Below the pieces are notes generated by a model that saw only the letters and a program-made list of their open reading frames with translations, ran no database searches and was not told the origin of the DNA. From Candidatus Eiseniibacteriota bacterium (GTDB lineage Bacteria; Eisenbacteria; RBG-16-71-46; SZUA-252), in NCBI GenBank assembly GCA_963703225.1, contig OY969801.1, positions 393,701 through 457,700 on the forward strand: a stretch of DNA of 64,000 bases, read 5' to 3'. Within the stretch, counting starts at the first letter, position 1. Every line of letters starts with the position of its first letter. Of this stretch, positions 3,033 to 21,024 are shown in pieces. A program made the translations under genes and the position numbers.

Positions 3033-3040
3033 CGCGGCTC

Positions 3041-4316
3041 CTAGAAGGATCCGCCGAGGCGGACCCCGACGAGGAAGGGAGCGTCGGAGTCCTGAAGGCT
3101 CCGCGCGACCGTGATCGCGATCGGTCCCGGGCCGAGCCTGATGCCGGCGCCGCCGTCGAGCGCGAAACGCTGGTGATCGATCTCGCCGCGGCCGAACCAA
3201 GCCGCGCCCCAATCCAGGAATCCAAAGACCCAGACGTTCTTCCTGGCGAGCAGGTAGTACTCGGCGTTGCCGAGAAGGAACTGGTCGCCGTCGAATTTCT
3301 TGTACTCGCGCCCGCGGAGCGTCCCGATCCCGCCCAGGTGCCAGATCTTCTGCGCGGGGAGGTCGCCGTCGACCGTGGTCCCGCCGATCAGCCGCGCGCG
3401 GGCCTCCTGCCGCGGCGAGAGCCTCACCTTGGTGTGGGCCGCGCCGCGGATCCGTCCGTATTCCGAATCCCCGTCGATCGGCGAGCCGGCCCGCTCGTAG
3501 GTGATCTCGCCGTTGGTGCCGCCGTCGGCGGGAATGGCCACGGGCCCGATCCGAGCCCCTGCTTCCACGACGCCTTGCCGCCCGTCGTCGATGGCGGGGT
3601 TGGCGCGGAAGTGGTCCTCCTTCCCAAACACGGAGAAGCTCACCTCGGTGTCGAGCGAGCGGACGTCCTCCACCGAGGCTCCGACCCGGATCGCGAAGTC
3701 GCGGCCCGGCTCCCACTGCCCGAACGCTTTCCAGCCCTCGGCCTCGTAGTGATCCCGATAGTCGGTCCGGGCGAAGAGCGCGAAGAACGTGTTCTCGGTC
3801 TCGCCGACGATCCACCCATCTTCGGTCGCCGTGCGTCGGTAGAGGGCGCCCCCGACGCGGAAGCGGGCGGGATCGCCGATCGGCGCCTCGAAGCCGACGT
3901 CGTAGAGGAAGCGATCGCGCGAGAAGGCATAGCCGGCGGAAAGGTAGAGAAGCGGCCTCGGCTCCCGCTCGCTCTTGACCGCCACTCCCAGAAGGAGCGC
4001 GGGGCCGTCCACGCGGTTGTACCGGAAGTTTATGAGCGGGGTGAGGTGGGCCGCTTCAGGAAGACCGGCGGAGAGCGTCTCCCACTCCGCGGGTCGAAAG
4101 GCCGGTGGCGGGGCCGCCTCCGATACGGCGCGGACGCTGTCGGGCGGCGCAGGAGTGCGGCGCGCCGACGCTGTCGGGGGGTGGAGGCGTGGCGGCGGCG
4201 CCGACACTATCGGACGGGGCGTCGGCTCTCGCGCCGGCGGCCAAGAAAAGGCCAGCCAGGAGCGCGGCGCGGAGAAGCGCTGCGCTACGAGCCGGCGGTC
4301 TCGCGGGCCAGCCCAT
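3041..4316 (-). CDS. Omp85/BamA-TamA-like outer-membrane beta-barrel protein (frameshift near 4150)
   Basis: C-terminal LGGIGTLRGREYKKFDGDQFLLGNAEY, FLDWG and terminal Phe. The signal peptide (AALLRAALLAGLFLAAGARA) is in another frame (ORF 4056..4316), so a 1-nt indel is implied. Confidence 0.7.
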
Positions 4317-5652
4317 ACCGCTTGATCTTCCGGTGGAGATAGCCGCGGTCCATGCCCAGTCGCCGCGAAGCCTCCGTCACGTTCCACTGACACTGCTTCA
4401 GCGTCGCTAGGATTGTGTCTCGCTCGGCCTTCTCGCGGGCGACCTTGATTTCGCTGGGGGGTCCTTCGTCCGCGTTCGCCGGGAGCGCCTCCTCCACGTC
4501 GGCCGCGCCGACGGTTTCGCCGTCGGTCATGATCAGGATCCGCTCGATCAGGTTTCGAAGCTCGCGGATGTTCCCGGGCCACCCGTAGCCGGTGAGGCGC
4601 TCGATCGCATCCCGTGTGAACGCGCGGGGCGGCCGGCCGTGCTCCGACGACAGCCGGGCCCCGAAGTGCGCGACCAGGAGCGGGATGTCCTCCCGCCTCT
4701 GCCGGAGCGGCGGGAGGTGGATCGGGACCACGTTGAGGCGGTAGAAGAGGTCTTCCCGGAAGCGTCCCGCCTGGATTTCCTCCTGGAGGTCCTTGTTGGT
4801 CGCGGCGACGATCCTCGCGTCGACCGAGAGGGTCCGCGTGGCGCCGAGCCGCTCGATCTCTCCGGTCTCGATCGCGCGGAGAAACTTGGCCTGCGTCTCG
4901 AGGCTCATGTCGCCCACCTCGTCGAGGAAGAGCGTGCCGCCGTCGGCCGCCTCCAGCCGTCCGCGCTTCATCTGGGTCGCCCCGGTGAACGCTCCCTTCT
5001 CGTACCCGAAGAGCTCGCTCTCGACCAGATCCTTGGGCAGCGCGGCGCAATTCAATTTTTCGAACGGGCCACGCGCCCGCGCGCTGCCCTTGTGGATCGC
5101 GCGGGCGACCAGCTCCTTCCCGGTTCCGCTCTCCCCGGTCACGAGCACCTTCGCGTCGGTCTTGGCCACCTTCGCGATCTCGGCGCGGATCTGGTCCAGG
5201 CTGGCGCTCTTCCCCACCATCTCGTCCGACGCGCCGGCCATCGCGCGGAGCCGCTCGTTCTCGCGCTGGAGCGCCCGGATCTCCAGCGCGCGCTCCACCG
5301 TGACCTGGAGCCGGTCCGGCCCAAACGGTTTCTCGACGAAATCGGCGGCGCCCAACCGGATCGCCTTCACCGCCTCCTCGATCGATCCGTGGCCCGACAT
5401 CACCACGACCGGGAGGTCGGGGTTGGCCGCCTTGGCCAACTCCAATAGGGCGAGACCGTCCTTGCCAGGGAGTTTGAGATCGGTGAGGAGGAGGTCGACC
5501 CGCTGCTGCGCGAGGATCCGCTCGGCCTCCTCCGCGCTGACCGCCGTGAGCGGCTCGTAGTGGCGCTTCAAGCTCGCGGCTGTTTCGAGCAACACCGAGG
5601 GCTCATCGTCGACGATGAGGATGCGGAGCTTGCCGCCGCCCGCCGCGCTCAC
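4285..5652 (-). CDS. Sigma54-dependent response regulator (NtrX/AtoC-like: REC, AAA+, Fis HTH)
   Basis: ILIVDDE, DLKLP, GESGTGKE, GAFTGA, LFLDEV, FREDLFYRLNV, C-terminal HTH. Confidence 0.95.
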   Translation of the reverse strand: MSAAGGGKLRILIVDDEPSVLLETAASLKRHYEPLTAVSAEEAERILAQQRVDLLLTDLKLPGKDGLALLELAKAANPDLPVVVMSGHGSIEEAVKAIRLGAADFVEKPFGPDRLQVTVERALEIRALQRENERLRAMAGASDEMVGKSASLDQIRAEIAKVAKTDAKVLVTGESGTGKELVARAIHKGSARARGPFEKLNCAALPKDLVESELFGYEKGAFTGATQMKRGRLEAADGGTLFLDEVGDMSLETQAKFLRAIETGEIERLGATRTLSVDARIVAATNKDLQEEIQAGRFREDLFYRLNVVPIHLPPLRQRREDIPLLVAHFGARLSSEHGRPPRAFTRDAIERLTGYGWPGNIRELRNLIERILIMTDGETVGAADVEEALPANADEGPPSEIKVAREKAERDTILATLKQCQWNVTEASRRLGMDRGYLHRKIKRYGLARETAGS

Positions 5653-7222
5653 GGCGATGTCTCCTCCACGGCCGCCGAGGAGGGGATGGTGAGCCAGGCC
5701 CGGGTTCCGACGCCTGGACTCGACTCGATCCCGAATCGCCCTCCATGCTGCTCCACAATCCGCTGGACGAGCGTGAGGCCGAGGCCGCTTCCGGTCGATT
5801 TGGTGGTGAACCCAGGGTGGGTCGCCCGCTCGAGCGTCGCCGCGTCCATGCCCGGCCCTGTGTCCTCGACTTCCAGCGTGACGCCCTCGCCGTCCTCGGG
5901 TGCGGCGCGACGAACCCGGAGCGTGACCGTGCCCCGATCGCCCATCACCTCGACCGCGTTCTTGATCAGATTCACGAGCACACGCTGGATTTGACCCGCA
6001 TCGGCCCAGGCTAAGGGAACGGGACGCTCCACCTCAACGCGGAATTCGATCGAGGAGGTGCCGCCGTAGAGCTTGGCGGCGTCCGAGGCAAGCTCGGCGA
6101 GGTCGCAGGGCGGCGAATCGCGGCTCCGGGAGCTGCGCCACCGCCGAGAACGCCGTGGCAAACTCCTGGAGCGAGTGAACCTCGCGCAGGATCGCCTCCG
6201 CGTTCTCCGCCACCACCTCCGCGCGCGGCGCTTCCGGGCGTCGCGCCTCATCCTTGAGACGCTGCAGCGCGAACTGAATCGGCGTGAGCGGATTGCGAAT
6301 TTCGTGCGCCACGGCGCGCGCCACCTCGCGCCACGCCGCGAGGCGCTCCGCGCGCAAGAGCGCTCGACGGGATCCCTGGAGCTCCTCGACCATTCGGTTG
6401 AACGAGGTCGGCGAGAAAGCGCACTTCGCTCGTTCCCGACGGCTTCACGCGATGCGCGAGGTCTCCCAAGGACGCCCGCGTCATGCCGGCACGGAGCGCC
6501 ACGATCGGCTTTGCGATCCCTCTCGCGACGAGGTAGGCAAGGCCGAAGCTGACCGCGCCCAGAATCAGGCTCCAGAGCGCCGCGAAAATCCAGAGGCTCC
6601 GCTGCGAGAGCCACGTGTAGACGCCGAGCCGCCGATACATCGAGAGATTCTTCTGGAGGGCCACGATCTCCGACGATATCTCGGGGTCGAGCTGGTAGCC
6701 CGCGAGGATGACTCGATCCCTGTCGAGCGACGCGACCCCGCTCACCTGCCGCGGCGCGTCATCTCCGGAAACGAGGCCGCCGTGCTCCAGAGCGGCGAGA
6801 ATCGAGGCGCGCTCGGGCTGGGGAAGGGTGATGCGCGGACCCAGCCGGGCGCCAAAGATGCGCTCCGCGCCCTCGGCCCCATCGCGAATCCGATAGAGCG
6901 CGATGTAGTCGAGCCCGCGGCTCCGCGCTTCGTCGCGGAGGTGGCGCTCGAGGTTGGCGCTTTGCTCCGGGGCTAGGAGGCGCACGGTGGCCGGGTCGAG
7001 CGCCATGACCTCGGCGTGCTGGCGGGCGTCGCTCGCCAACCGCTCGATGCCGCCCCGGATCACCTCGAGCGACTGGCCGAGCGCGCGCTCGGTCTCCGGG
7101 TTCTTGAGCGCCGCCAGGCTCCGCGCGAGGTACTGCGTGACGTAGAACGTGAGGCCGAGCGAGGGGATGAGCGCGACGAGGAAGAAGAGGGCGAGGAGCC
7201 GCCCCCGGAGGGTGCCGAACAT
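5649..7222 (-). CDS. NtrY-like HAMP sensor histidine kinase, split by two frameshifts (near 6410 and 6110)
   Basis: TM/HAMP in ORF 6248..7222; H-box AWREVARAVAHEIRNPLTPIQ in ORF 6034..6393; HATPase NLIKNA/EDTGPG/GSGLGL in ORF 5649..6614. Confidence 0.85.
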
Positions 7223-7244
7223 CCTGAACCCGCGCCCCGAGGCG

Positions 7245-8351: not shown

Positions 8352-8442
8352 GGCCCCATATGCTACGTTTGATCGGATTGTCGAGTCAACCATAGGGGGA
8401 TCTTACGCCGCCATCCGCGTCTTCTCCGGGGGCCGTGCCGTT

Positions 8443-9447: not shown

Positions 9448-9476
9448 TTGACGCATCCGCAGAGCGAAGCTATCCT
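9448..9476 (+). promoter_or_regulatory. Sigma70-type promoter for the small secreted ORF / TPR activator
   Basis: TTGACG-17 nt-TATCCT in the intergenic region. Confidence 0.65.
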
Positions 9477-9487
9477 AGCTAGTTAGA

Positions 9488-9628
9488 GGCAGTGTTCGTC
9501 AACGGGCGCCTGCTCCCGCTCGGGAGCATCCCTCTCGGACCGCGGTATCGCAGCCGCGGCGACGACGCCTACTGACGAACTGCCGGCAACCACCAAGCGA
9601 AGCGACTGGAGCGCCGGGTGTCGCTTCG
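9488..9628 (+). ncRNA. Structured 5' leader (candidate cis-regulatory RNA)
   Basis: GGCA..GTTCGTCA (9488-9501) pairs with TGACGAAC-TGCC (9573-9584), enclosing hairpins TGCTCCC/GGGAGCA and CCGCGG/CCGCGG. Hairpin CGAAGCGAC/GTCGCTTCG (9598-9628) lies just before RBS TAAGGAG. Confidence 0.4.
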
Positions 9629-9644
9629 TGTAAGGAGCAAGGGA

Positions 9645-9947
9645 ATGAGGGTCCAGGTTCCACGCCGCATCATTGGTTTGGGCATCCTCGTCGCCTTCCT
9701 CTGTCTGACTCCGGCTCTTTCCTCGCCAGTTTTTGCCAGGCCCTATCACTGGGAAGACAGAGACTCGCCAGATCCGCCCCTCCCAAAGGGTGACGGTGAT
9801 GGAACGGTCGTGAAGGCTGCGGGCAACTCAAGTGCCCCGGCTCTCAGCACGACGGCGCCGAATGGCACGCGGACGTCGGTCACGAGCATGGTGAAGAGCG
9901 CTCTCCTCATGGTGCGTCTGGGCTACGGCTTGCGCTGGTACCTGTAG
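9645..9947 (+). CDS. Small secreted protein / candidate signalling-peptide precursor (100 aa)
   Basis: RBS TAAGGAG at 9631; Sec signal MRVQVPRRIIGLGILVAFLCLTPALSSPVFA; acidic Pro/Gly core DRDSPDPPLPKGDGDG; low-complexity linker; C-terminal amphipathic/aromatic helix. Confidence 0.75.
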   Translation: MRVQVPRRIIGLGILVAFLCLTPALSSPVFARPYHWEDRDSPDPPLPKGDGDGTVVKAAGNSSAPALSTTAPNGTRTSVTSMVKSALLMVRLGYGLRWYL

Positions 9948-10027
9948 CAGGTACGCAGCGCCCGTAATACGCGACACGGTCCCGGACCGTGCCGCGCGCC
10001 GTGGTATCGCAGTCGTTGAGGGCCGGT

Positions 10028-13000
10028 ATGGACGGACTTGTCCCGAAAGATCGATCGGACATTCCGCACCGAACCGTTGGGGCTCCCGGTCCCCGTGCAT
10101 CATTTGACGCGGGCGCGTACGGCGAGCACAAGGCTCAGGAGCTCGGGGATCTCTATTTCGCGGCGGACAACTACGTCGTCGCGTTGGAGTACTACCGCCG
10201 CGCTCTAGACGCGGGTCCGAGGGCCGATACCCCCGAGAACCGGGAGGACCTTCTCCGGATCGGGACCCAGATCGTCGAGTGCCTCAGGCATCGCGGCGAT
10301 CTCGCCGACGCGGTCGACTCGCTCCACGATCTCCATCGGCGCCTCCGTCCGCACGTAACTCGCGAGCAGGCGGGGCGTCTTTCGGCCAGCCTCGCGCTTC
10401 TGCTCTTCGAGCGGGGCCGCTACCGGCCCGCGCAGCGGGCGGCCACCCTCGCCTACCGGCTCCTCCGCGACACCACGCTCAACCTCGACATCGGTCGCAC
10501 CGAGATGATCTTCGGGGTCATCGCGCTCCGAACGGGTGACTGGAACGCGGCCCGCGAGTACTTCGAGAGCGCCATCGCGACCTACCGGCGCGCGGGCTAC
10601 GACGCCGGGATGGCAACGGCCTACAACAGCCTCGGCCTCCTCCACAAGAATCACTGCCGCTTCAAGGAGGCGGCCCGGTTCCTGGAGCAGGCCCTTCGGA
10701 TCGGCGAGCGCTCCGGTCTCTTTCACGATTCGGCCACCTACGTCCACAACCTCGGCATCGTCCACGAGAAGATGGGCGATTGGGATGTCGCGGAGGATCA
10801 CTACCGGCGCGGCCTTCAGATGAATACCGAGGTCGGAAATCCCGTCGGGAAGGCGAGGGCGCTCTTCTGCCTCGGAAACCTCCGCCGCAAGCGCCGCGAT
10901 TTCTCGACGGCCGAGAACCTACTTCGCCAGGCCCTCGCGCTCTCTGTGGAGCGCGGCTTCCCGCGGGAGACGGTCCTTTCCCGCGAGGGGTTGGGCGACC
11001 TCTACGCCGACCGCGACATGCTCCAAGAGGCCCGCGCCGAGTACGAAACGGGGCTGGCCATGACCGATCAGTTTGCCCCCGACTCAGACCTGACGGTCGA
11101 GCTGGTCCGGCGGCTCGGGGACGCGCAGCTTCGAATGGGCGAGATCGAGCCGGCGAGAAGGAGCGGCGAGCGAGCGCTCGCGGTCGCGCGGCGACTGGGC
11201 GATCGGATCGAAGAAGCTTGCTCGCTCCGTCTTCTGGGTCTCGCGGCCGCGGAGGCAGGGGAGTTTCCCGCGGCGCAAGAGCGTCTCGGGGAGGCGAGCC
11301 GGATTCTCCTCGCGATCGGCAAGCGCTATGAGCTGGCGCGTCTCAACATGGGCGCCGGGCTCGCCTGGCGCCGCCGGGCGCGAAAGGGGAAGTCGCGTGC
11401 CATCCTGGACGAGTCGGTTGGCTACCTGCGCCGCGCGGTGGCGGCGTACGAGAGCCTCGCGCTCCCCGCGCTGACCGCGCGCGCCCTCCTCGAGCTTTCG
11501 AGGAGCGAGCTCATGCGGGGCCTGGTCGACGAGGCCGTGCTCCACCTCGACCACGCCACGTCCATCCTCTCCCCCGAGGACGATCCTGCCCTCGCGCGCG
11601 AGATCGAGGAGTTCCGGACCGAGATCGAGAAAGGGCTGATCGAGGGGACCTCCGCCCAGAGCAACGAGTTTGCAGCGTTCGAGGAAGTCCGCAGCGTGCT
11701 GCGGGGCGGCGACGCCGAGTTGGCCGTGCAGGAGGTGTTGTCGGTGACCGCGCGCAGGGTATCGGCGGCGCGGGGCTGCGTGGCGGCACCGGCGGTCCAC
11801 GGCGGGATCGAGGTTGTCGCCTCGGTCGGCATGTCCTTCCGCGTGGCGCAGGACCTTCTGAGCGAGATGGAGCGCCGCATCGGCTCGGCCCGCCTGGCAT
11901 CGGCGCCGGTCGTGAGCAGCCGCGCGGGAGCCGACGGGCGATTCCGCGACATGCCGGGGATGACCCATTTGAGCCCTAGGACCAGCATCGCCATCATGCC
12001 GCTCTCGCTGCCCTCCGGACTTCCCGGGTACCTCTACCTCGATCGTCCCGAGGAGGGGCCGCTGGGCCCGTTCAAACAGCGGGAGATCAACTTGATCGCG
12101 GTGCTCGCGAATCACGTCGCGGTGGCCATCCTCGAGCTGCAAAGGCAGCGCCTGGCGCGCGAGAACACGGCGCTTCGGGGCCGTCTCCTTGGCTCCGCCA
12201 ACGATCATGGCATCGTGACGAGAAGCCCGGAGCTGCTCGAGATCCTCTCGCTCCTGGAGCGGGTCGGGCCGAGCGACGCCACCATCCTGATCGAGGGCGA
12301 GACGGGGAGCGGCAAGGGGCTCCTCGCGCGCGCGATCCACGCCTCCAGCGCCCGCGCCACCAAGCCGCTGATTCAGGTCAACTGCGCCGCGCTGCCCGAG
12401 CAGCTCCTCGAGAGCGAGCTTTTTGGGCACGTGCAGGGCGCCTTTACCGGAGCGGTGCGCGAGAAGGTCGGTCTTTTCGTGGAGGCCAGCGGCGGCACGC
12501 TCTTCCTGGACGAGGTCGACAAGACCACGATCACGATCCAAGGAAAGCTTCTCCAAGTCCTCGACAACCGCGAGGTGCGGCCGGTCGGAGGGAACAAATC
12601 GACCAAGGTGGACGTCCGCGTGGTCTGCGCGACGAACGTCAATCTCAAGGCAAAGATCGCGCGCGGCGAGTTCCTCGAGGATCTCTACTACCGGCTCAAC
12701 GACATCTGCTTCCGGGTCCCGCCGCTTCGGGAGCGGCCGGAAGATGTGCCGCCCCTCGTCGAGCACTACAGCCGCCGGTTCGCGGCCGAGATGGGCAAGG
12801 AAATCCGGGGCGTGGATCAGGACCTGATCGCGGTCCTCGCCGGGCTCCATTGGCGGGGCAACGTTCGCGAGCTGGAAAAGGTCGTGAAGCGCCTTGTGGT
12901 CATGGCGAATGACGGCGATACGCTTTCGATGGAGCTTCTGCCGCGCGACCTCCTCAAGCCAGAGAACGAAAACGGCGACTCCCCGTCCACGTTGAGGGCC

Positions 13001-13165
13001 GAGGTTGCCAAGGTGGAGCGGCGGCTCATCTCACAGGCGCTGGAGCGCCACAACTGGAACAAGCTCCAGGCCGCCAAGGAGCTCTCGCTCTCCTACCCGA
13101 CCCTCCTTCAGAAGATCAAGCTCTTCCGCCTCGACCGAAGGCTTCAACCCCGGCAAAAGGCTTAA
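10028..13165 (+). CDS. TPR-GAF-AAA+ sigma54-dependent transcriptional activator (bEBP) with Fis-type HTH
   Basis: About 550 aa of TPR repeats (AYNSLGLLH, VHNLGIVH, LFCLGNLR), GAF-like region (GYLYLD...IAVLANHVAVAI), GETGSGK, GAFTGA, LFLDEV, YRLND, HTH NKLQAAKELSLSYPTL. Confidence 0.92.
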   Translation: MDGLVPKDRSDIPHRTVGAPGPRASFDAGAYGEHKAQELGDLYFAADNYVVALEYYRRALDAGPRADTPENREDLLRIGTQIVECLRHRGDLADAVDSLHDLHRRLRPHVTREQAGRLSASLALLLFERGRYRPAQRAATLAYRLLRDTTLNLDIGRTEMIFGVIALRTGDWNAAREYFESAIATYRRAGYDAGMATAYNSLGLLHKNHCRFKEAARFLEQALRIGERSGLFHDSATYVHNLGIVHEKMGDWDVAEDHYRRGLQMNTEVGNPVGKARALFCLGNLRRKRRDFSTAENLLRQALALSVERGFPRETVLSREGLGDLYADRDMLQEARAEYETGLAMTDQFAPDSDLTVELVRRLGDAQLRMGEIEPARRSGERALAVARRLGDRIEEACSLRLLGLAAAEAGEFPAAQERLGEASRILLAIGKRYELARLNMGAGLAWRRRARKGKSRAILDESVGYLRRAVAAYESLALPALTARALLELSRSELMRGLVDEAVLHLDHATSILSPEDDPALAREIEEFRTEIEKGLIEGTSAQSNEFAAFEEVRSVLRGGDAELAVQEVLSVTARRVSAARGCVAAPAVHGGIEVVASVGMSFRVAQDLLSEMERRIGSARLASAPVVSSRAGADGRFRDMPGMTHLSPRTSIAIMPLSLPSGLPGYLYLDRPEEGPLGPFKQREINLIAVLANHVAVAILELQRQRLARENTALRGRLLGSANDHGIVTRSPELLEILSLLERVGPSDATILIEGETGSGKGLLARAIHASSARATKPLIQVNCAALPEQLLESELFGHVQGAFTGAVREKVGLFVEASGGTLFLDEVDKTTITIQGKLLQVLDNREVRPVGGNKSTKVDVRVVCATNVNLKAKIARGEFLEDLYYRLNDICFRVPPLRERPEDVPPLVEHYSRRFAAEMGKEIRGVDQDLIAVLAGLHWRGNVRELEKVVKRLVVMANDGDTLSMELLPRDLLKPENENGDSPSTLRAEVAKVERRLISQALERHNWNKLQAAKELSLSYPTLLQKIKLFRLDRRLQPRQKA

Positions 13166-13193
13166 AAGTAGCTATTAAGTTTGTTAATAGTCG

Positions 13194-13218
13194 TAAGTGG
13201 TTGGGGTTTGGCCGCTTA
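13194..13218. promoter_or_regulatory. Imperfect palindrome TAAGTGG-N11-CCGCTTA (candidate IHF or activator site)
   Basis: Inverted repeat in an AT-rich patch upstream of a sigma54 promoter. Confidence 0.4.
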
Positions 13219-13310
13219 TCCACCCTCTTCAATTTCGTTATCAATTATCAATCCAAAATCACGCAGCTTCGCCCCTCCCGCATCACGCCAAGCCGCCTTC
13301 GGATCGACCT

Positions 13311-13340
13311 TGTAAGATGCTGATTTTAATGAGTGTTACA
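13311..13340. promoter_or_regulatory. TGTAA-N20-TTACA palindrome (candidate IHF or UAS site)
   Basis: TGTAAGATGCTGATTTTAATGAGTGTTACA about 40 nt upstream of the -24 element. Confidence 0.45.
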
Positions 13341-13376
13341 ACCTCATTACGATCAATATTGAGGCGGCCCGAAACG

Positions 13377-13392
13377 TGGCATGCGAGATGCA
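13377..13392 (+). promoter_or_regulatory. Sigma54 (-24/-12) promoter 1
   Basis: TGGCATGCGAGATGCA = GG-N10-GC with TGGCA at -24. Confidence 0.7.
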
Positions 13393-13402
13393 ATGAACAA
13401 GT

Positions 13403-13540
13403 CAGCGGAGGGGGGGACCTCCAAAGAGCCCGCAGGCCTCGCCAGCGTTAGGCCATGGGTTAGCCGCCAATTCGAGCACCGGCCTCGGAAAACGCGGTGT
13501 AACCTGAAGAGAGCTGGCAAGGCCGGGGCTCAATTTTTTG
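13403..13540 (+). ncRNA. Candidate sigma54-dependent small RNA (about 135 nt)
   Basis: Starts about 12 nt after the -12 GC. 5' hairpin GGAGG/CCTCC, then a long interrupted stem: GAGCCC/GGGCTC, GGCCT/AGGCC, GCCAGC/GCTGGC, GGTT/AACC, GCACCG/CGGTGT. Followed directly by TTTTTT; no credible ORF. Confidence 0.55.
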
Positions 13541-13774
13541 CCTCGTTCGTTCCTTCCGTAGATCCCTCGATTTCTCGGTCCACCACCCGCCTCTCGTTCT
13601 CGCTCATACGACCCGCCTCTTGTTCTCGCTCACTCCACCCGGCTTTTCCGGATGACTCGCCGCTCTCCCTCGGAGCGCGCTCGCGCCTCCACCGCCAGCC
13701 CCACCGCTGTAGCGCGCCAGTCACAGTGTCCCAGATACGACGCCAAATCCCCACTCCAGGGCCATCGACACCCA

Positions 13775-13807
13775 CTGCAATAAGCAACTGCCCTGCAATA
13801 AGTTACA
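13775..13807. promoter_or_regulatory. CTGCAATAAG direct repeat / TAA-N19-TTA element (candidate IHF or UAS site)
   Basis: CTGCAATAAG at 13775 and 13793, about 30 nt upstream of sigma54 promoter 2. Confidence 0.45.
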
Positions 13808-13832
13808 AGCCAAGAGATAGCCGGCCAATCCG

Positions 13833-13847
13833 TGGCATGACGCTTGC
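13833..13847 (+). promoter_or_regulatory. Sigma54 (-24/-12) promoter 2
   Basis: TGGCATGACGCTTGC, near-consensus TGGCACG-N4-TTGC, upstream of RBS GGAGG and the GTG at 13930. Confidence 0.8.
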
Positions 13848-13929
13848 GGTTCGAGTCTGTGGCGGCTGGGGAATCGCCTGCCGCGACAGACAAGATCGGA
13901 AGCGGACAAACCGGAAGGAGGTGGGCTAC

Positions 13930-14697
13930 GTGATCCGGATGTGGGGTAGAGTGCTCGCCGTCGCGGGCCTGCTCGGGGCCGCGGGATGCCATGACAACAA
14001 CACGATCGTCGCGCCTGATCCGCCGCCATTCACGGTGGAGGGCGTCCGGAGCGTCACGGGTGACGGGCTGGTCACCGTTTCCTGGCGCGGCAATCAGGAG
14101 ACCGACATTGACTACTACAAGGTCTATCGCAATTTCGCGCCGACCGGCACGTTCACGCTGATCGGGACGACAGCCGATATTCGCTACGAGGACCGGAACG
14201 TGGCCAACGGGACCACCTATTTCTACGCGGTGGCCGCGGTCGATCGGGCAGGCCAGGAGAGCCCGGACCTGAGCTATGAGAACGTATTCGACACACCTCG
14301 TCCCGAGGGCGTCGACGTCACGCTCTCGAACGCCGACGTCAATGACGTCGTCAGCGGATGGGATTTCTCAGCCTACACTCGCCGAGCCTCGGCCGACCCC
14401 AACACGGACATCTTCTATGCCGCGTCGGGCGGGCACTTCCTCGTCTACACGCCGGTCGACACGCGCATCCAGGACGCCGGATTCGTCGCCCTCCGGGACG
14501 TCGACTACGCTCCACCCTCCGGTTGGTCCGCCGACGGCGTGGTGGAGGCGATTCCGGGACACAGCTACATCGTGCTGACGCGAGACAATCACTACGCCAA
14601 ATTCGAGGTGGTCGCTCGAGACGACGCCGGCATGAACATGGACTGGGCCTATCAGATCGACGTCGACAATCCCGAGCTCGCGAGGCCGCTCCCATGA
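13930..14697 (+). CDS. Lipoprotein with fibronectin type III-like domain
   Basis: RBS GAAGGAGG; lipobox LLGAAGC; GDGLVTVSW...YKVYR...NGTTYFYAVAAVD...ES. Confidence 0.85.
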   Translation: MIRMWGRVLAVAGLLGAAGCHDNNTIVAPDPPPFTVEGVRSVTGDGLVTVSWRGNQETDIDYYKVYRNFAPTGTFTLIGTTADIRYEDRNVANGTTYFYAVAAVDRAGQESPDLSYENVFDTPRPEGVDVTLSNADVNDVVSGWDFSAYTRRASADPNTDIFYAASGGHFLVYTPVDTRIQDAGFVALRDVDYAPPSGWSADGVVEAIPGHSYIVLTRDNHYAKFEVVARDDAGMNMDWAYQIDVDNPELARPLP

Positions 14698-16004
14698 AGC
14701 GGTTCCCGCCCACCGCCCTGGCGCCGCTCGCGCTGGCCCTCCTGATCATTGGGGGGCCGGCGCGCGCCGTGACCCAGGTGCCAGCGGGAGGAGCGCCTTC
14801 CGGGGAGAAGCTCACGGTCGATGTCTGGATCAACAAGGAAGAGGGCGGCGTCTACCGACCCGGGGAAAGCATGCGTGTCTTTTTCCGGACCAGCGCGGAC
14901 GCCTATGTGCTCGTCTACAACATCGACACGGACGGATACATCCACCTGGTCTATCCGTACGGACCGGCCGATCAAGTTCGCGTCGAGGGGGGCCGCACCT
15001 ACATCATTCCGGCGCGGCACGATCCCTACGAGCTGGTCGCCGATGGGCCTTCGGGCATGGAGTTCGTGGTCGCCGTGGCCAGCCGCCTCCCGTTCCACGA
15101 TCTCCCGTGGTATCTGACGAGCGGCGCGCCCGAAGGAGAGGGAGATCACGGCGGGGGCGCCGACGACGAATTGGATTCAGGCGTCATCGTCGGAGATCCC
15201 TACGTGGGGATGGAGCGCCTCAACAAGCGGATCATTCCGCCCGGCGGCGAATCCGAGGCGGACGTCGGCGATATCTACTTCTACATCGACAAGCGGGTCG
15301 AGTATCCACGCTATGTTTGCGCCGACTGCCACTACTCTTCGTTCGGGTTCGATCCCTATCTCAGCGTCTGCCCGGTAGTCGACATCCGGATCGACGCGAC
15401 ATGGGTGCGCTACGCGCCGGTCCGCGTCGGAGTGGCGCGACCGCGCTACTACTATTGGGTGCGGTCGGGAGCGCCCGACCGCTACCGCGCCTGGAAGGAG
15501 CGCTGGTCCTCCATCGACGGAGGGACGACGCTGCGGTCCCGGTTCGTCGTCGAGCCGAACAGTCGCTCCATCAAGACACGCGATCTCAAGGCGCGGCGCG
15601 AGCCGCCGGAGTTCAAGGACCTGAGACGAACCCGCCCCGGCCGGCTCTGGCAGGGACGCGATGAGGTGCTTCGTCTCTGGGAGCAGCAAAAGGGCGACGT
15701 GCGCGACAAGCCGTCCGCCTCCCAGGGAGCCCGATCGGGGAAGGACCGACCGCGAGCCGAACAGCCCGCGCCGGACCAGGGGAAGTCGGTTGAGGGGAAG
15801 AAGAATCAGGACCAGGGTGGCGAGCGCGAACGCGGCAAGGTCCGCGACGACGGGGGAAAGGGTCAGAACCGCGACAAGGGTCAAGAACGCGACAAAGGCC
15901 AGGATCGCGACAAAGGCCAGGATCGCGACAAGGGCCAAAACCGGAGCCACGACCCGGCCCCTCCGCCCAAGTCCGACGCCGAGCACAGGGAGCGCACGCG
16001 CTAG
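14694..16004 (+). CDS. DUF4384-domain exported protein with CxxCH motif and charged repetitive tail
   Basis: ATGA overlap; signal peptide; VYRPGESMRVFFRTSADAYVLVYNIDTDGYIHLVYP; YVCADCH. Confidence 0.8.
   Translation: MKRFPPTALAPLALALLIIGGPARAVTQVPAGGAPSGEKLTVDVWINKEEGGVYRPGESMRVFFRTSADAYVLVYNIDTDGYIHLVYPYGPADQVRVEGGRTYIIPARHDPYELVADGPSGMEFVVAVASRLPFHDLPWYLTSGAPEGEGDHGGGADDELDSGVIVGDPYVGMERLNKRIIPPGGESEADVGDIYFYIDKRVEYPRYVCADCHYSSFGFDPYLSVCPVVDIRIDATWVRYAPVRVGVARPRYYYWVRSGAPDRYRAWKERWSSIDGGTTLRSRFVVEPNSRSIKTRDLKARREPPEFKDLRRTRPGRLWQGRDEVLRLWEQQKGDVRDKPSASQGARSGKDRPRAEQPAPDQGKSVEGKKNQDQGGERERGKVRDDGGKGQNRDKGQERDKGQDRDKGQDRDKGQNRSHDPAPPPKSDAEHRERTR
15858..15944 (+). repeat. Coding 18-bp tandem repeat (about 5 units, KGQ[NED]RD)
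   Basis: aagggtcagaaccgcgac / aagggtcaagaacgcgac / aaaggccaggatcgcgac x2 / aagggccaaaaccgg. Confidence 0.85.
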
Positions 16005-16066
16005 ATAAGACAGATACCGAGGGGCGCAGGTTGACCGCCCCTCGCCGGGACCGGTAAACTCTTCCA

Positions 16067-19000
16067 GTGCGATCCGTCCCGCCCGGCCGGAGTCTGCTCC
16101 TCCCGGCTTTCCTTTTTCTAATCCTCTTCCTTCTCCTCATCGGGACATCCGCTTTGGGGTCCCCGCCTGTCCCCGGGAAGAAGGGCCCGCAGGCGCCCCG
16201 CTACGAGCACGCGGCGACGGCAACCGCGACACAGCCCCCTCCCATCTTCCGCCCCCAGGGGGCGGGCCGCGCCCCGCTCCTCGGCGCCCAGACCTATACG
16301 GTCCTGGCCGTCCGCGTGGCGTTCAGCGATACGCCGATCGACTCCTCGACGGCGTATTACGACCGGCTGCTCCTCTTTCTGAGCCAATACTGGGATCAGG
16401 CTTCGGACGGGCAAGTCACGCTCAACACCACCCTCTGGGATTCGGTATTCACGCTTCCCCGACCGATGGCCTATTACGGCGACGATGATCACTTCCAAGA
16501 GCGCCTGGTCTTCATGGTTCGGGACCTGGTTGCCCTGGCCGATACGACCGTCAACTTCAGCCAGTACCAGAGCCTCTACATCTTCCACGCGGGGGCGGGG
16601 CAGGAAGCGGACGTCTTCGACAACAGCAGGGAGCAGATCTGGTCGGCGTTCGTCACGCCGGATGACTTCGCGCAGGTCTTGCCCGATTCGGCCGGCGCCG
16701 TGGGCATCAAGACCAACGATCAGACGAGCCCCGGCGTCTTCTATCGTGTCTCGCAAGCGGTCGAGGCGCCGGAGCTGGAGAGCCAGGATGGGTACGAATT
16801 CGGGCTCACCGGAGTCACCTGCCATGAGTTCGGCCACCAGCTGGGGCGGCTGCGAGGACAGCCCTCGATGCCCGATCTCTACGACACGACGCCGGACGAT
16901 GGCGGCTTCAATCAGGGGCTTGGATCGTGGGACATCATGGCCGGCGGGGTCTGGAACGCGAATGGATTCGTTCCCGCGGGCATCAGCGCGTGGACGCGCT
17001 ACTGGATGGGCTTCATCGCCCCGGCTCAGGTGATCGCCACGGGCCCGCAGACGGTCTCCGAGCTGGAGCGTCAGGTGACCGCCGATCCGCGGATTCTCCA
17101 GATTCCCATCACGCAGTCGGAATACTTTCTCATCGAGAATCGGCAGCGCGACCTGGACCGAAACGGGAAGTTCACGTTCGACGACACGAACGGCGACGGC
17201 TGCTTTGACTTCTACACCGACAGCTACGCCGGCGCGGAGTTCGACTTCTTTCTGCCCGCGATCCTGACACCGCCGGGAGCGGGGTGCGACGCGGGCAGCT
17301 ACGTCAGCGGATCGGGCATCGTGATCTACCACGTCGACGACGCCAAGATCCAGGCGGGCCTCTCCAACAACGTCGTGGAAGGGGACACGCAGCGAAAGGG
17401 GATCGACGTTGTCGAGGCGGACGGGATCGAGGACCTCGACGGGCCGCCGTCGAGCGCCGCCGGCGGGAGTCCCTATGACGTCTATCGAGCGCGGATACAA
17501 GGACCAGTTCACACCAAACACGGTCCCCTCGACCGCCGCTTATGGAAACGTCAGGACTGGAATTTCGGTGACCCACATCAGCGCGGCCGACAGCGTGATG
17601 ACGATGGACGTCACGATCGATCGGACCCGTCCGGGGTGGCCCAAGGTGCTGACGGGCCGGATTCGGAACGCGCCCAGCGTCGCCGCCGACCTGGACGGGA
17701 ACGGCTCGCTGGAGCTGATCGTGCCGGTGCAGAGGCTCAACAACACCGGGGCGATCTACGTCTTCGAGCCCGATGGGACCGACTTTCTGGACGGCGATGC
17801 GATCCCGACTCCGTTCGCCGTGACCACGTCCGCGCCCACGTCCAGCCCGTGCGTCGGCGACATCGACGGCGTGCCGGGGCCCGAGATCGTGTTCCAGACG
17901 TTGAACGGCGCGATCTACGCGTACCACACGAACGCCACCGAGGTGCTCGATGGGGATGGCAACCCCCTCACGGACGGCGTGCTGGTGGGACAGACCGTCT
18001 TCGGTGGGGACCGCGCCCAGCCGATCCTCGTCGATTTGGACGGCGACGGCGCCCTCGACATCGTCACTGGGTCGAACGCCACCGGGGCGCAGCTCGGCGC
18101 CTCGACGCTTCGCGTCGTCAGCATTTCGGGCGGCGCGCGCCGCCTCTTCAGCCTGCCCATGGCCGGGTCGACCGAGGGCCCGCCGGCCGCGGCCGATTTG
18201 GACGGCGACGGTCTGCCCGAAGTGATCATCCCGAACGTGATCACGATTGAAGAGGACAACGCCGCCAACGGGCTCTCCATCGCGAATTGGGACATCTTGA
18301 ACGACGGCACGCTGATCAAGACCCCCAATATCTTCATGGCCCTGCCGGGCGGACCTTTCTCGGCCCCGGTCATGGCGGACGTCGATCGAGACGGGCATTT
18401 CGACGTCATGGTCGCGGATGTCTCGGGCGCGTTCCACGCGTTCCAGCTCCGCCTCTCCCCGCGCCCCGTCGGCGAGCCCCCGAATCTCTACGTCCAAGTT
18501 TCCGAGGTCGCCGGGTGGCCCGCGTCTCCGGGAGGGCCGGGGCGGATTTCCGAGGTCTCGCTGGGAGATCTCGAGCAGGACGGCTATCCCGAGCTGCTCC
18601 ACACCGGGAACGACGTGAAGGTCGCGGCGCTTCACTACAACGGCGCGCCGCGGTCCGGGTACCCGATCAAGGCCGCGGCGGCCTACGCCGACGCCGATAC
18701 GGCGGGATTCTGGCCCCCCCTCGTCGCCGACGTCGACGGCGACGGCGTCCGCGACGTCATCGCGATCCTCCCCGATGGTCGCCGGCCGGCCTTCCGCGCC
18801 GATGGCGCCCCCATCAAGGATTTCGTCGAGTTGGGCAGCACCGGTGCCAACGCGCCCCCGATGCTCCTCGACCTCGACAACAATGGGACCGCCGAGTGGG
18901 TCGAGACGTTCGATACGTCGCCCACGCAGGCCTCGATCACGGTCCGGGACACCCCCATCCCCGTGGCGGCGGGGACGGTCGCCTGGGGCCAATACCGAAA

Positions 19001-19349
19001 TACCGCGACCCGGAACGCGGTCCTGGCGACAGGGCCCGCGGGGACCGCCGGGGGGACCCAAAACCTGTCCGCGGTGTATGGTTATCCAAACCCCTCTCGA
19101 ACGGGGACCACGACCATCCACTACCGGCTCGTCGAGGCGGCGACGTCGGTTTCGATCCGCATCCTCGATCCCACCGGGACCACGGTCGCCGATCTGCCGC
19201 CCGGCGCGGGCGGCCTGGCCGGCGCCGCCGAGCATGCCGTCCCCTGGGACAACCGGTCCGTCGCGAGCGGGGTCTATCTCTGCCGCGTCGAAGTCCGGTC
19301 GAGCCGGGGTACCGAAGTTCAGTTCGCGAGACTGGCCGTGGTCCGATGA
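16067..19349 (+). CDS. M6 (immune inhibitor A-like) metalloprotease with FG-GAP repeats and T9SS-type CTD (frameshift near 17490)
   Basis: IFHAGAG, CHEFGHQLG, PDLY, WDIMAGG, EYFLIENRQ; after the frameshift, repeated ADLDGDG motifs and YGYPNP...WDNRSVASGVYLCRVEV...LAVVR. Confidence 0.85.
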
Positions 19350-19369
19350 GCGGCCCTAAGGAGAATTCA

Positions 19370-20287
19370 ATGCGCCACGCCGTCGTGCTCCCCGCGAGTC
19401 GCCTCGCCTTGCTCTTGCTCCTTCTCGCGCCCGGCGCCGCCTTCGCCGACCCGGGCGAGACCGGCTTCGCGTTCCTCAAGCTCGGGGTGGGTGCGCGCCC
19501 GATGGGCATGGGAAGCGCCTATGTGGCCATCGCCGACGATCCCACGGCGGTCTACTGGAATCCGGCGGGGCTGGCCACCATCACCAAGACGCAGGTCACG
19601 GCGATGCACAACGAGTGGATCCAGGATTTCCGCCAGGAATTCGTCGCGGTGGGCACCCGGTGCGGCCCCGGCAGCCTGGGGATTGGGTTTTCGGGGTTCT
19701 ACGCGGACGAGTTCGAACGGCGCGACGACACCGGCGTGCTCATCGGCCACTTCGGATTCAACGACATCGCGCTGACGGGAGCCTACGGGATGGCCGTTGC
19801 CCCGGGGCTGGACGCGGGTCTCGCGCTTCGCTACGTACGGGAAATGATCGATCAATACGACGCCACCGCGTTCCTGGCCGACGCCGGGGCGCAGTACCGC
19901 CTCCGCGATACCGGCGTGAGCTTTGGCGCCGCGGTGCAGAACCTGGGCGGCGATTCGAAGTTCATCTCCGAGTCATTCCCGACTCCGCTCACCTGGCGCG
20001 TCGGCGCGGCCGGAAGCCGCCAGCTGGCCAAGCTTCAGGGACGGGGGACCTTGACCGCCGAAGTCCGCCAGGCGAAGGCCGACGACATGCACTTCCACGT
20101 TGGCGCGGAGTATTCGTACAAGGAGCACGTCGCGCTTCGGGTGGGCGGGAAGTTCGGCTACGACGACGAGAGCGTGAGCTTTGGGCTCGGCCTTGCGAAG
20201 GACTGGTTCCACTTCGACTACGCGCTGGTTCCGCTCACGTCCGATCTCGGAACCACCCACTTCTTCTCGGTCACTGGCGTTTTTTAG
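19370..20287 (+). CDS. PorV/PorQ family outer-membrane protein
   Basis: RBS TAAGGAG; FLKLGVGARPMGMGSAYVAIADDPTAVYWNPAGL; terminal Phe. Confidence 0.88.
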   Translation: MRHAVVLPASRLALLLLLLAPGAAFADPGETGFAFLKLGVGARPMGMGSAYVAIADDPTAVYWNPAGLATITKTQVTAMHNEWIQDFRQEFVAVGTRCGPGSLGIGFSGFYADEFERRDDTGVLIGHFGFNDIALTGAYGMAVAPGLDAGLALRYVREMIDQYDATAFLADAGAQYRLRDTGVSFGAAVQNLGGDSKFISESFPTPLTWRVGAAGSRQLAKLQGRGTLTAEVRQAKADDMHFHVGAEYSYKEHVALRVGGKFGYDDESVSFGLGLAKDWFHFDYALVPLTSDLGTTHFFSVTGVF

Positions 20288-21024
20288 TCCGCGGCGTCAT
20301 ACTCGTGTAGCGAGAAGCGCCCCTCCGAGAGCCGCGCGTAGGTCCTTCGCTCCATCCAATTACCCAAGATCAAGAACTCCCCGTCCGGTCCCTTGTAGTG
20401 AAGCGGCAGATGGAAATGGCCCATCACGACCGCGTCGTGCCCCTGTCTCAGCCAAGGGGTGGCCAGCTTCTCGACCAGCGCCGCCTCCGTTCGCTCGGGG
20501 CGCGGCGTGTGGTGCCGGCTCGTGTGGGAGACGGCCCGGGCGAGCGGGATTCCGAGGTCCGGATGGATCCATCGAAAGAGGCCCCGGGCGACGGGATTGC
20601 GGAGCGCCTTTCTCAAGATCTTGTAGCCGTGGTCGCCGGGGCCGAGGCCGTCCCCGTGCGCGAGGAAGATATTCCTCCCCTGGATGGAGAGTGTGAGCAC
20701 CCGGTCCGTGAAGGCGACGTCCAGCTCGCGAGTGAGGTAATTCCCGATCCAGAAGTCGTGATTTCCGCCGACATATGTGACGGGGAGCCCCCGCCGTCGG
20801 AGCTCCCCCAGCCCCTGGAGCACCCGCACAAAGCGCTTCGGAATGGCGTGGCCGTACTCGAACCAAAAGTCGAACAGGTCGCCGTCCACGTAGAGCGCCG
20901 CCCGCTCTGAGCCGACGCGGTCGAAGAACGCCAGCAGATCGCGCTCTCGCGCTCGATTGGATTCGGCGGTTCCTTGGCCGAGGTGGGCGTCGGCGATGAA
21001 ATAGGCGCACCCGGGTTCGGGCAT
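20284..21024 (-). CDS. lpxH: UDP-2,3-diacylglucosamine diphosphatase
   Basis: FIADAHLG, GDLFDFWFEY, GNHD, HGD, MGHFH, LGNW. Confidence 0.88.
   Translation of the reverse strand: MPEPGCAYFIADAHLGQGTAESNRARERDLLAFFDRVGSERAALYVDGDLFDFWFEYGHAIPKRFVRVLQGLGELRRRGLPVTYVGGNHDFWIGNYLTRELDVAFTDRVLTLSIQGRNIFLAHGDGLGPGDHGYKILRKALRNPVARGLFRWIHPDLGIPLARAVSHTSRHHTPRPERTEAALVEKLATPWLRQGHDAVVMGHFHLPLHYKGPDGEFLILGNWMERRTYARLSEGRFSLHEYDAAD

Follow-up and report, generated by a model that had tools for sequence, protein, structure and literature searches.

Does a cytoplasmic activator of sigma-54-dependent transcription take its signal from a small exported protein encoded just upstream of it, and is a regulatory RNA its output? 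The question is raised by positions 9448-20287 of the window analyzed here, a 64-kb stretch (GC content 67%) of contig OY969801.1 from a Candidatus Eisenbacteria genome. A preliminary description of this DNA had proposed a cell-cell signalling circuit with an input like that of the RRNPP peptide receptors and an output like that of the LuxO-Qrr system. Candidatus Eisenbacteria is a phylum of soil and water bacteria, diderms of the Fibrobacteres-Chlorobi-Bacteroidetes (FCB) group, of which we know of no cultured member. The source genome is a single contig of 3.12 Mb with a completeness of 90.9% by marker genes. Comparison of the window with about 155 related loci shows that it holds a module conserved across Candidatus Eisenbacteria, in which an activator with tetratricopeptide repeats (TPR) and a GAF domain, a structured RNA and an envelope operon are arranged in three predicted transcription units of fixed order, with all parts on the plus strand.

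Two sets of loci were compared. For the first, 40 relatives were searched with the TPR part of the activator, 34 loci were fetched with their flanks, and the proteins of the window were located in them by tblastn. The further set was obtained by scanning for the first sigma-54 promoter of the module (P1) followed by the hairpin that opens the RNA, with one genome per species; this gave at least 120 stretches, and the titles of the matches listed were nearly all Candidatus Eisenbacteria. Counts from the further set are among the matches listed and refer to loci with enough flanking DNA, and all the loci compared are kin and hence non-independent. In the first set the same gene order recurred across families: ppx or rlmN, the small open reading frame (ORF), the activator, a long spacer, genes for an fn3 lipoprotein, a DUF4384 protein, an M6-FG-GAP protease and a PorV-like protein, and a convergent metallophosphoesterase gene.

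In the family alignment about 135 nt following P1 were far better conserved than their surroundings and ended in a U-run. No convincing ORF was found in this segment (13403-13539), and the copy in the window folded with -64.9 kcal/mol (z = -3.0). The 5' end of this small RNA (sRNA) is a hairpin, GGAGG-GGGGGA-CCUCC (13407-13422), whose sequence is invariant in the 21 family copies; the middle is an irregular long stem whose apical loop, CACCGGC, is likewise invariant, and the 3' end is a closing helix, GAGCCC/GGGCUC, followed by U6. The latter elements form an intrinsic terminator that a simple terminator scan did not flag, the loop being too long for the rule of the scan. The gap-free alignment of the 21 copies yielded 35 base pairs with RNAalifold, 13 of them with compensatory changes on both sides. 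Of the cells in these pairs 98.6% were paired, compared with 29-50% when the partners were slid by 1-3 columns, and the covariation score of 0.327, compared with 0.150 in shuffles, was reached by 0/500 of them; with kin sequences the shuffle control overstates covariation, whereas the slide control does not. A covariance model built from the RNA found a single copy in the source genome (E 4e-38) and scored above 80 bits in 19/100 further loci among the matches listed.

The remaining loci carried the same promoter and hairpin followed by a much longer RNA body, made up of a first hairpin that varies, a second that is highly conserved (CUGGGCUAGCCGG...GGUCGAGGGUACGAGCCCC...CCGGCUAGCUUGG) and a 3' domain (GGGGGAUGUC) with a terminator. 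The 21 loci showing all landmarks had long forms of 262-554 nt (median 350), the value of 554 nt being an outlier due to a late terminator match and the others ranging from 262 to 462 nt. Both forms open with a hairpin of the type GGAGG-G5-7A-CCUCC. RNAalifold predicted 23 pairs in the core hairpin of the long form, 3 of them changed on both sides, from a 58-row MAFFT alignment that, owing to gaps, misplaces an inner helix covarying by eye. In eight loci (L063, L068, L118, L153, L163, L177, L180 and L183) an AAA ATPase gene (product about 540-580 aa, motif GxPGTGKT) begins about 130-200 nt past the hairpin.

At the gathering score no Rfam family matched the window or 10 long-form loci, and at E values up to 10 the Rfam search returned chance-level rows only. 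Identity of the sRNA with 6S RNA was ruled out, the 6S match of the genome (93 bits) lying elsewhere. As judged from these comparisons, the structured RNA is real and represents a new family, predicted to be non-coding, with a conserved secondary structure and a terminator of its own. The source genome encodes CsrA, and few functional CsrA proteins are predicted in Eisenbacteria in the available portion of one report (PMC13443453). A role as a CsrA sponge was considered, the loop carrying GGA, but in the short form just two GGA motifs are conserved; the sponge was rejected as an explanation and kept as one option for titration. Duplex folding of the sRNA with the leader of the small ORF, the start of the activator mRNA and the 5' region behind the second promoter (P2) in 21 genomes was no better than with mononucleotide shuffles (median z of 0.44, -0.57 and -0.75, respectively); this method ignores intramolecular structure and was uninformative.

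The promoters were located with the pattern TGGCAY-N5-TTGCW, allowing at most one mismatch. The 64-kb window held three matches compared with 1.37 expected from shuffles, and two of the three lay on the plus strand in the 773-nt spacer after the activator gene, where about 0.017 were expected. Genome-wide, 48 loose and 8 strict matches were counted. P1 was found about 210 nt after the activator stop codon in 21/21 family loci and, with the strict pattern, in 10/14 loci of other families, and P2 about 100 nt before the lipoprotein gene in 19/19 family loci holding this gene and in 9/12 loci of other families. An activator homolog ended less than 600 nt upstream of P1 and its hairpin, on the same strand, in 105/109 loci among the matches listed. 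In three of the four misses the activator was still upstream on the same strand, 880 nt away in one and with a displayed best match ending far upstream in the other two (a split match in L120). The lipoprotein gene followed the RNA in 91/95 loci among the matches listed.

A conserved dyad was found upstream of each promoter. The AT-rich dyad begins 6 nt past the activator stop codon, about 205 nt upstream of P1, and was present at -220 to -190 of P1 in 64/149 loci (4 in the shuffled control) and at P2 in 0/113. The dyad TGT-N12-ACA was found at -160 to -125 of P2 in 98/113 loci (1 in the shuffled control) and at P1 in 10/149 loci (7 in the control); its form TGTAGC-N6-GYYACA occurs once in the 3.1-Mb genome.

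The domain content of the activator was determined with Pfam, which detected TPR_12 and other TPR families at approximately residues 50-360, a GAF domain (28.9 bits, cut-off 22.4), Sigma54_activat (PF00158, E 1e-63), AAA_lid_14 and HTH_8, and no Response_reg (receiver, REC) domain. The motifs GAFTGA (residue 804), Walker A (GETGSGK, 757) and Walker B (LFLDE, 825) are intact. No credible transmembrane segment was found: the 19-aa stretch of highest hydropathy (1.65) falls within the GAF core and includes E, H and N residues. The source genome has rpoN (217.6 bits) and about 20 sigma-54 activators. With its AAA+ domain and GAFTGA motif, Walker A and B motifs and Fis-type HTH, the presence of rpoN and the -24/-12 promoters nearby, the protein is by its sequence an enhancer-binding protein of the sigma-54 type. 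Orthologs of the TPR part were present in 24/24 family genomes with 58-95% identity, and the activators of other families of the class have 1030-1071 aa and 30-36% identity. Clusters of about 900-1030 aa combining Sigma54_activat with TPR_12 or TPR_2 in a protein atlas, mainly from Acidobacteriota, Krumholzibacteriota and WOR-3, are a lead only.

An AlphaFold2 (AF2) model of the TPR part, made from a 35-row alignment, was an all-helical superhelix of 26 helices (pLDDT 87.9), so that the sensor modelled in the approximately 560 aa before the GAF domain would comprise about 13 TPR-like helix pairs. Foldseek comparison of this model with the PDB returned LGN/Pins, TSK, OGT, SPINDLY and APC subunits, and no RRNPP receptor among the matches listed. 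The nearest solved folds, the TPRs of LGN/Pins, are in complex with Frmpd4, Inscuteable and NuMA according to their entry titles. TPRs of the LGN type bind their partners in the inner groove, as extended peptides. From the model, a partner of the activator TPR, be it a protein or a peptide, is thus plausible, and unspecific.

The best candidate for such a partner would be the product of the small ORF, which lies on the same strand with an 81-nt gap to the activator gene. The N-terminus of the small protein has a basic start, a hydrophobic core and a VFA/RP-type cleavage site (FA/KP also occurs in relatives), signal peptides being called here with our own hydropathy heuristic and not with SignalP. 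The protein further shows FA/RP...W, an invariant GDGDG-x-VVK motif, a Ser/Thr-rich linker and an amphipathic aromatic and basic tail, RLGYGLRWYL; in relatives the linker is Ser/Thr/Gly-rich and the C-terminal tail rich in aromatic and basic residues. By tblastn the small ORF was detected in the family only (37-61% identity). A search by position recovered, in 35/35 loci, a 95-126-aa ORF whose end lies 18-251 nt ahead of the activator, and in 42/44 loci of the further set a small ORF, together 77/79. The hydropathy of the core was at least 2.06 in 77/77 of these ORFs, which had been selected on such features. The acidic motif, GDGDG or GDNDG within the family and G[DE]PD in other families, was present in 33/35 and 37/42 small ORFs, with a chance expectation of 0.006 per 80 residues of the same composition. 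The small ORF diverged more than its neighbour, with 35-64% identity where the TPR part has 60-95%.

The tail reached a hydropathy of at least 1.6 in only 8/77 small proteins, with medians of 2 charges and 4 aromatic residues, and a C-terminal membrane anchor as a general feature was therefore ruled out. A PEP-CTERM reading was ruled out by eye, G[DE]PD lying 30-45 residues away from the tail. No Pfam or NCBIfam family matched the small protein; its 12 homologs in a large protein collection are all unnamed or 'hypothetical', and the atlas clusters nearest to it likewise hold hypothetical proteins of Eiseniibacteriota. The promoter in front of the small ORF is of the sigma-70 type, with CTTGAC and the TAT of the -10 element invariant in 21/21 family loci, and in the same 21 loci AAGGAG is conserved before the start codon. 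The leader between them shows several hairpins that apparently covary, the last with a conserved GCCGG in its loop. This GCCGG is complementary to the invariant sRNA loop CACCGGC over 5 nt, which is weak evidence and was not relied on; such pairing would allow feedback of the sRNA on the mRNA of the small ORF and the activator.

Three more sigma-54 activators of the TPR type (770-832 aa) are encoded in the source genome, each with a small ORF 38-53 nt upstream whose product has a signal peptide, a G[DE]P motif and a hydrophobic tail. The tail of one of these paralogs resembles a true membrane helix and is followed by RGTNR. Scanning the entire genome in six frames for the small-ORF signature gave seven ORFs, of which four are exactly those beside the TPR activators, and found none before the other 16 activators. 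Since the small ORF is conserved upstream of the activator (35/35 and 42/44 loci) and stands beside all four TPR activators of the genome, a functional pairing of the two proteins is likely on comparative grounds. An AlphaFold complex prediction for TPR residues 30-560 (35-row alignment) and small-protein residues 32-100 (21-row alignment) scored 0.00 in both runs, which says nothing either way.

Table 1. Positions of the features discussed (window coordinates unless the row says otherwise)
Feature	Position	Strand	Basis or remark
NtrC-type response regulator, REC + Sigma54_activat + HTH_8	4285..5652	-	Pfam
Sensor kinase of the NtrC-type regulator, split over two frames	5649..7222	-	
Sigma-70-type promoter TTGACG-17-TATCCT	9448..9476	+	Consensus scan; serves the small-ORF/activator unit
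5' leader of about 165 nt, apparently with hairpins, ending in the ribosome-binding site AAGGAG	9477..9644	+	Family alignment (21 loci)
Small exported protein, 100 aa	9645..9947	+	ORF translation, hydropathy heuristic
Bacterial enhancer-binding protein, 1045 aa, TPR-GAF-AAA+-HTH_8	10028..13165	+	Pfam, NCBIfam, AF2, motifs
AT-rich dyad CTATTAAG-N3-CTTAATAG, candidate P1 enhancer	13172..13190	+	Sequence, conservation
Sigma-54 promoter P1, TGGCATGCGAGATGCA	13377..13392	+	Pattern scan
Structured sRNA, about 135 nt	13403..13539	+	Alignment, RNAalifold, covariance model
Dyad TGTAGC-N6-GTCACA (TGT-N12-ACA), candidate P2 enhancer	13708..13725	+	About 125 nt upstream of P2
Sigma-54 promoter P2, TGGCATGACGCTTGCG	13833..13848	+	Pattern scan
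Lipoprotein with fn3-like domain, first operon gene	13930..14697	+	fn3 21.3 bits, below the 25-bit cut-off
Exported DUF4384 protein with Lys/Asp/Arg-rich tail	14700..16004	+	Pfam E 3e-19; syntenic
M6 (immune inhibitor A-like) metalloprotease with HEFGH, FG-GAP repeats and C-terminal Ig-like domain	16067..19349	+	TIGR03296, FG-GAP_3
PorV/PorQ-family outer-membrane protein, last operon gene	19370..20287	+	NF033709 165.4 bits (cut-off 90)
Three paralogous cassettes	About 330100-332300, 2197100-2199400 and 2955700-2958200 of the source genome		Outside the window

The operon behind P2 encodes four exported proteins (Table 1). The lipoprotein gene most likely starts at the GTG at 13930, an ATG not being present in relatives, and the signal peptide ends in ...AAGC. 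The protease scored 119.3 bits with TIGR03296 (cut-off 110.8) and 146.9 and 87.8 bits with the NCBIfam 'inactivated M6' equivalog (cut-off 600); for its C-terminal domain, a possible sorting domain of the type IX secretion system (T9SS), Por_Secre_tail (18.2 bits, cut-off 23) and FlgD_ig (17.2 bits, cut-off 27) both stayed below their cut-offs. The frame of the protease gene changes near 17483-17500; two aligned relatives read through, and a single ORF of about 1090 aa accommodates the tblastn matches of other relatives. A split over two frames is also seen in the kinase gene (5649-7222), in a gene of the OppA type and in two activators elsewhere in the genome. Since several conserved genes of the same genome are affected, consensus or indel errors of the assembly are likelier than true pseudogenes. 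A convergent gene for a calcineurin-like phosphoesterase (20284-21024, minus strand), lpxH-like by position, is syntenic with the operon. It is followed by a gene for a trypsin-like protease of the HtrA/DegP type (21611-22786, plus strand), whose translation degenerates near the 3' end, maybe through a frame problem. On the other side of the module a DUF4390 protein is encoded behind the NtrC-type regulator (2298-3815, minus strand).

The inventory of the preliminary description thus stood: the 100-aa ORF with a signal peptide directly upstream of the activator, the TPR and GAF domains without a receiver domain or transmembrane segment and with an intact AAA+ domain and HTH, the two sigma-54 promoters behind the activator gene, the ORF-less structured RNA after the first and the operon with a secreted protease after the second. 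The two features it had expected to be conserved beside homologs of the activator, a small secreted ORF upstream and a sigma-54 promoter with an sRNA downstream, were both found in the loci compared.

We lean towards the following mechanism. The sigma-70-type promoter and long leader would drive the first unit, giving the small exported protein and the cytoplasmic TPR-GAF activator. The activator would assemble on the AT-rich dyad behind its own stop codon and open P1, directly after its gene, much as CbrB acts at crcZ and GlrR at glmY; from P1 a stand-alone RNA with its own terminator (about 135 nt here and 260-460 nt elsewhere) would be transcribed as the second unit. Analysis of the locus makes it probable that the activator opens P1 and so controls the RNA. 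The third unit, transcribed from P2, would be the four-gene envelope operon (lipoprotein, DUF4384 protein, M6 protease with a putative T9SS-type tail, and PorV-like protein). P2 would be opened by the NtrC-type regulator that is syntenic with the module or else by the TPR-GAF activator again, the former being likelier given the different dyad. The RNA would act in trans after transcription, most likely by titration of a protein and possibly by base-pairing; recognition by a protein is suggested by the 5' hairpin, which is invariant in sequence and not merely paired. The input of the activator would be a ligand of the GAF domain, a partner in the TPR groove, or both, and the small exported protein might be that TPR partner or an upstream co-sensor in the envelope.

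Several observations weigh against this mechanism. About 20 activators and 48 loose sigma-54 motifs were counted in the genome, and the AT-rich dyad was detected, with the pattern used, in just the 64/149 loci mentioned. Since the conserved dyads upstream of P1 and P2 differ, a single DNA-binding specificity could not easily serve both promoters. No sigma-54 motif or hairpin was found within 700 nt downstream of the other three TPR activators, indicating that the RNA is specific to one paralog and not to the cassette. Hfq was not detected in the source genome. In 8/122 loci among the matches listed the hairpin is followed, without a terminator, by the AAA ATPase gene. The small-ORF signature was partly derived from the examples it recovered and its motif was widened after one paralog, so that the genome scan was not fully independent. 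Finally, an NtrC-type two-component system, whose regulator the preliminary description had named as a possible rival driver of the promoters, is syntenic with the module and divergent. That the NtrC-type system drives P2 and possibly P1, the TPR activator serving the other promoter or a distant target, is a serious alternative, to be taken with considerable reservation. Its regulator, with REC, AAA+ and HTH_8, lies at most 7 kb from the TPR activator on the same contig, by coordinates, in 20/24 family and 10/16 other-family genomes, and the P2 dyad, which is absent from P1 (10/149 compared with 7 in the control), shares its form with TGTC-N10-GACA, the sites of GlrR, a classical response-regulator activator, described in the accessible part of PMC4152352. 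Similarity in the form of a dyad is not specificity, however; the housekeeping genes rlmN and ppx lie between the NtrC-type system and the module, the system is unlinked in 6/16 genomes of other families (in four the distance exceeds 12 kb, G036 has it on another contig, and in G040 the two lie on different contigs of a fragmented assembly), and the P1 RNA adjoins the TPR activator more tightly than the NtrC-type system does (105/109 loci among the matches listed). The earlier claim of one activator for both promoters is accordingly doubtful, and we can hold only tentatively that the TPR-GAF activator also opens P2. Since two activators and two different dyads stand in a conserved neighbourhood, a division of labour between the activators would be as likely as a single master. 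It is very unlikely that the RNA acts in cis, as a leader or attenuator with a terminator that controls read-through from P1 into the protease operon. It does lie on the same strand directly upstream of the operon and ends in an intrinsic terminator, and in the eight AAA ATPase lineages the hairpin would behave as the 5' leader of an mRNA. The operon nevertheless has a conserved sigma-54 promoter and dyad of its own between the terminator and the first gene. Moreover, L041 and L042, two genomes of one genus, keep the RNA next to the activator though the operon is displaced or absent from the fetched stretch, which argues against a purely cis-acting leader. In L041 the sRNA terminator is followed by a 3.8-kb insertion (oriented positions 5100-8700) that carries, on the opposite strand, a REC-like gene, a PAS histidine kinase gene and an HATPase-like gene, and in L042, also with an insertion after the terminator, neither the protease operon nor the lipoprotein gene was found within the following 7.8 kb. 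We read the insertion of L041 and the AAA ATPase genes of L063 and L068, between P1 and P2, as lineage-specific.

The role of the small protein admits several explanations. It might have no part in signalling, being a merely co-transcribed envelope protein or a mis-called ORF, such ORFs being frequent in DNA of 67% GC; it has no family and no confident fold and was detected by a heuristic. We give this little credence: position, length, signal peptide, motif and tail are kept across families whose activators share less than 35% identity, the same features stand beside all four paralogs while just seven ORFs of the genome fit the signature, and the start codon is preceded by the conserved AAGGAG. 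At the other end, the small ORF could encode a pro-peptide that, once secreted and processed (perhaps by the M6 protease), would be taken up again and bound in the TPR groove, an RRNPP-like cell-cell signal in a diderm. Its conservation beside the TPR activators and co-duplication with them, its fast evolution (35-64% compared with 60-95% identity for the TPR part), the partner proteins in the solved LGN/Pins structures, the OppA-type binding-protein gene, one in the genome and split over two frames, and the secreted-protease operon next door would fit this explanation. We nevertheless judge it distinctly improbable. The length and domain order of the receptor fall outside those given for RRNPP receptors in the available part of PMC10075063, where validated pro-peptides measure 21-50 aa compared with the 95-126 aa found here; no RRNPP receptor was among the fold matches listed, the peptide would need to re-cross two membranes, and the conserved parts are the acidic G[DE]PD motif and an amphipathic tail rather than a short C-terminal peptide. 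Less improbable, and still unlikely in our view, is that the small protein is a non-diffusible co-sensor exported and held on a membrane by its amphipathic aromatic tail, its state (cleaved, displaced or degraded) being relayed to the TPR-GAF activator directly or through a membrane protein. This would be signalling across the envelope, as in anti-sigma or Psp systems, and not quorum sensing. The co-duplicated cassettes, the shared transcription unit with its 81-nt gap, the amphipathic tail, like a membrane helix and followed by RGTNR in one paralog, and the downstream genes, all for envelope or secreted proteins, are consistent with it. On the other hand, the small protein has no evident cytoplasmic segment long enough for the TPRs to hold, no relay protein was identified, and the explanation is purely a reading of sequence features. 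In its most far-reaching form the proposed mechanism would make the TPR-GAF activators a new class of receptors, each matched to a small exported protein of its own, the TPR groove reading as the signal this protein or a fragment that envelope proteases cut from it, and one such pair controlling an RNA found throughout the phylum; we consider this improbable.

New here are the RNA family and a sigma-54 activator whose sensor combines TPR and GAF domains and which, in four cassettes, has a small exported protein as its counterpart, whereas the overall logic of an activator beside its own sigma-54-dependent regulatory RNA is already known. Literature searches found nothing joining Eisenbacteria with sigma-54, and nothing on regulatory RNAs of Eisenbacteria beyond the CsrA work in the part of PMC13443453 that was available; the texts found on GAF-domain sigma-54 activators do not mention 'tetratricopeptide', and a TPR superhelix with GAF is a sensor architecture of sigma-54 activators not discussed in the reviews found. 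The RNA, strongly covarying and with a defined promoter, a terminator and a probable regulator, is suited to an Rfam entry and to a hunt for its targets. The cassette of small protein and TPR activator makes testable how orphan activators that have no kinase sense the envelope or neighbouring cells. Were the two proteins ligand and receptor, peptide-type signalling with cytoplasmic TPR receptors would extend beyond Bacillota; were the exported protein the signal, a peptide-type signal would be converted into RNA-level regulation in a diderm.

Among known systems CbrB-crcZ of Pseudomonadaceae is closest in layout, with an activator gene followed by a separate, sigma-54-driven long non-coding RNA. 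CrcZ is about 400 nt long, similar in size to the long form described here (260-460 nt). As stated in the accessible part of PMC8871633, crcZ lies downstream of cbrB and its sigma-N promoter is directly activated by CbrB. CbrB, however, is a phosphorylated REC regulator whereas the present activator has TPR and GAF and no REC domain; CrcZ titrates Hfq/Crc whereas Hfq was not found in the source genome; crcZ and the present RNA have no relation in sequence or in Rfam; and the second sigma-54 promoter and envelope operon that follow here distinguish the module from CbrB-crcZ. The GlrK/GlrR-glmY system of Enterobacteriaceae likewise places an sRNA beside the genes of its activator, with dyads more than 100 bp upstream of the promoter. 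According to the available portion of PMC4152352, glmY is transcribed from a sigma-54 promoter, the GlrR sites lie at a distance of more than 100 bp upstream with IHF sites in between, the GlrK/GlrR genes adjoin, and the glrK/glrR operon embeds the gene of a small outer-membrane protein, yfhG, which may be compared with the small exported ORF of the present locus. GlrR, on the other hand, belongs to the response regulators, GlmY serves as a decoy for RapZ, and there is no homology between the two RNAs.

In the LuxO-Qrr system of Vibrio, too, a sigma-54 activator switches on regulatory RNAs as the output of a signalling pathway. The qrr1 gene adjoins luxO, and the Qrr RNAs feed back on luxO mRNA. 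LuxO, unlike the present activator, is a REC regulator fed by membrane kinases, and the Qrr RNAs, of about 100 nt, are Hfq-dependent and multi-copy, whereas the RNA described here is single-copy in a genome where Hfq was not found. Of the LuxO-Qrr-like output proposed earlier, the activator beside a sigma-54-driven sRNA has strong comparative support, and its control of that RNA is indicated by association.

The proposed RRNPP-like input held for the neighbouring genes and the TPR content and failed for receptor size, domain order and fold matches. In the available part of PMC10075063 the RRNPP(A) pairs of Bacillota have a cytoplasmic TPR regulator adjoining a small gene with a Sec signal, with several pairs per genome. 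The neighbouring genes and the several pairs recur here, a Sec signal is plausible, and the 81-nt gap falls within the -50 to 191 bp range of gene neighbourhood given there. The same source gives receptors of 250-500 aa (1045 aa here) with the TPRs C-terminal to the effector domain (N-terminal here), and pro-peptides of 21-50 aa when validated or 10-100 aa by the default of the search tool (100 aa here and 95-126 aa in relatives, a borderline size). The AAA+ sigma-54 output domain and the diderm host are further differences. The locus may work like a receptor and pro-peptide pair, as far as its gene content goes, but it is not a member of the RRNPP group. Within the activator, the GAF domain directly before AAA+ is shared with NifA, NorR and FhlA, and NifA was the best NCBIfam row (316 bits compared with a cut-off of 529). 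The GAF domain of NorR represses its AAA+ domain until the signal arrives, as reported in the accessible part of PMC2941729. NifA, NorR and FhlA are without a TPR array, and what sets the Candidatus Eisenbacteria activator apart is the superhelix of about 560 aa that precedes its GAF domain.

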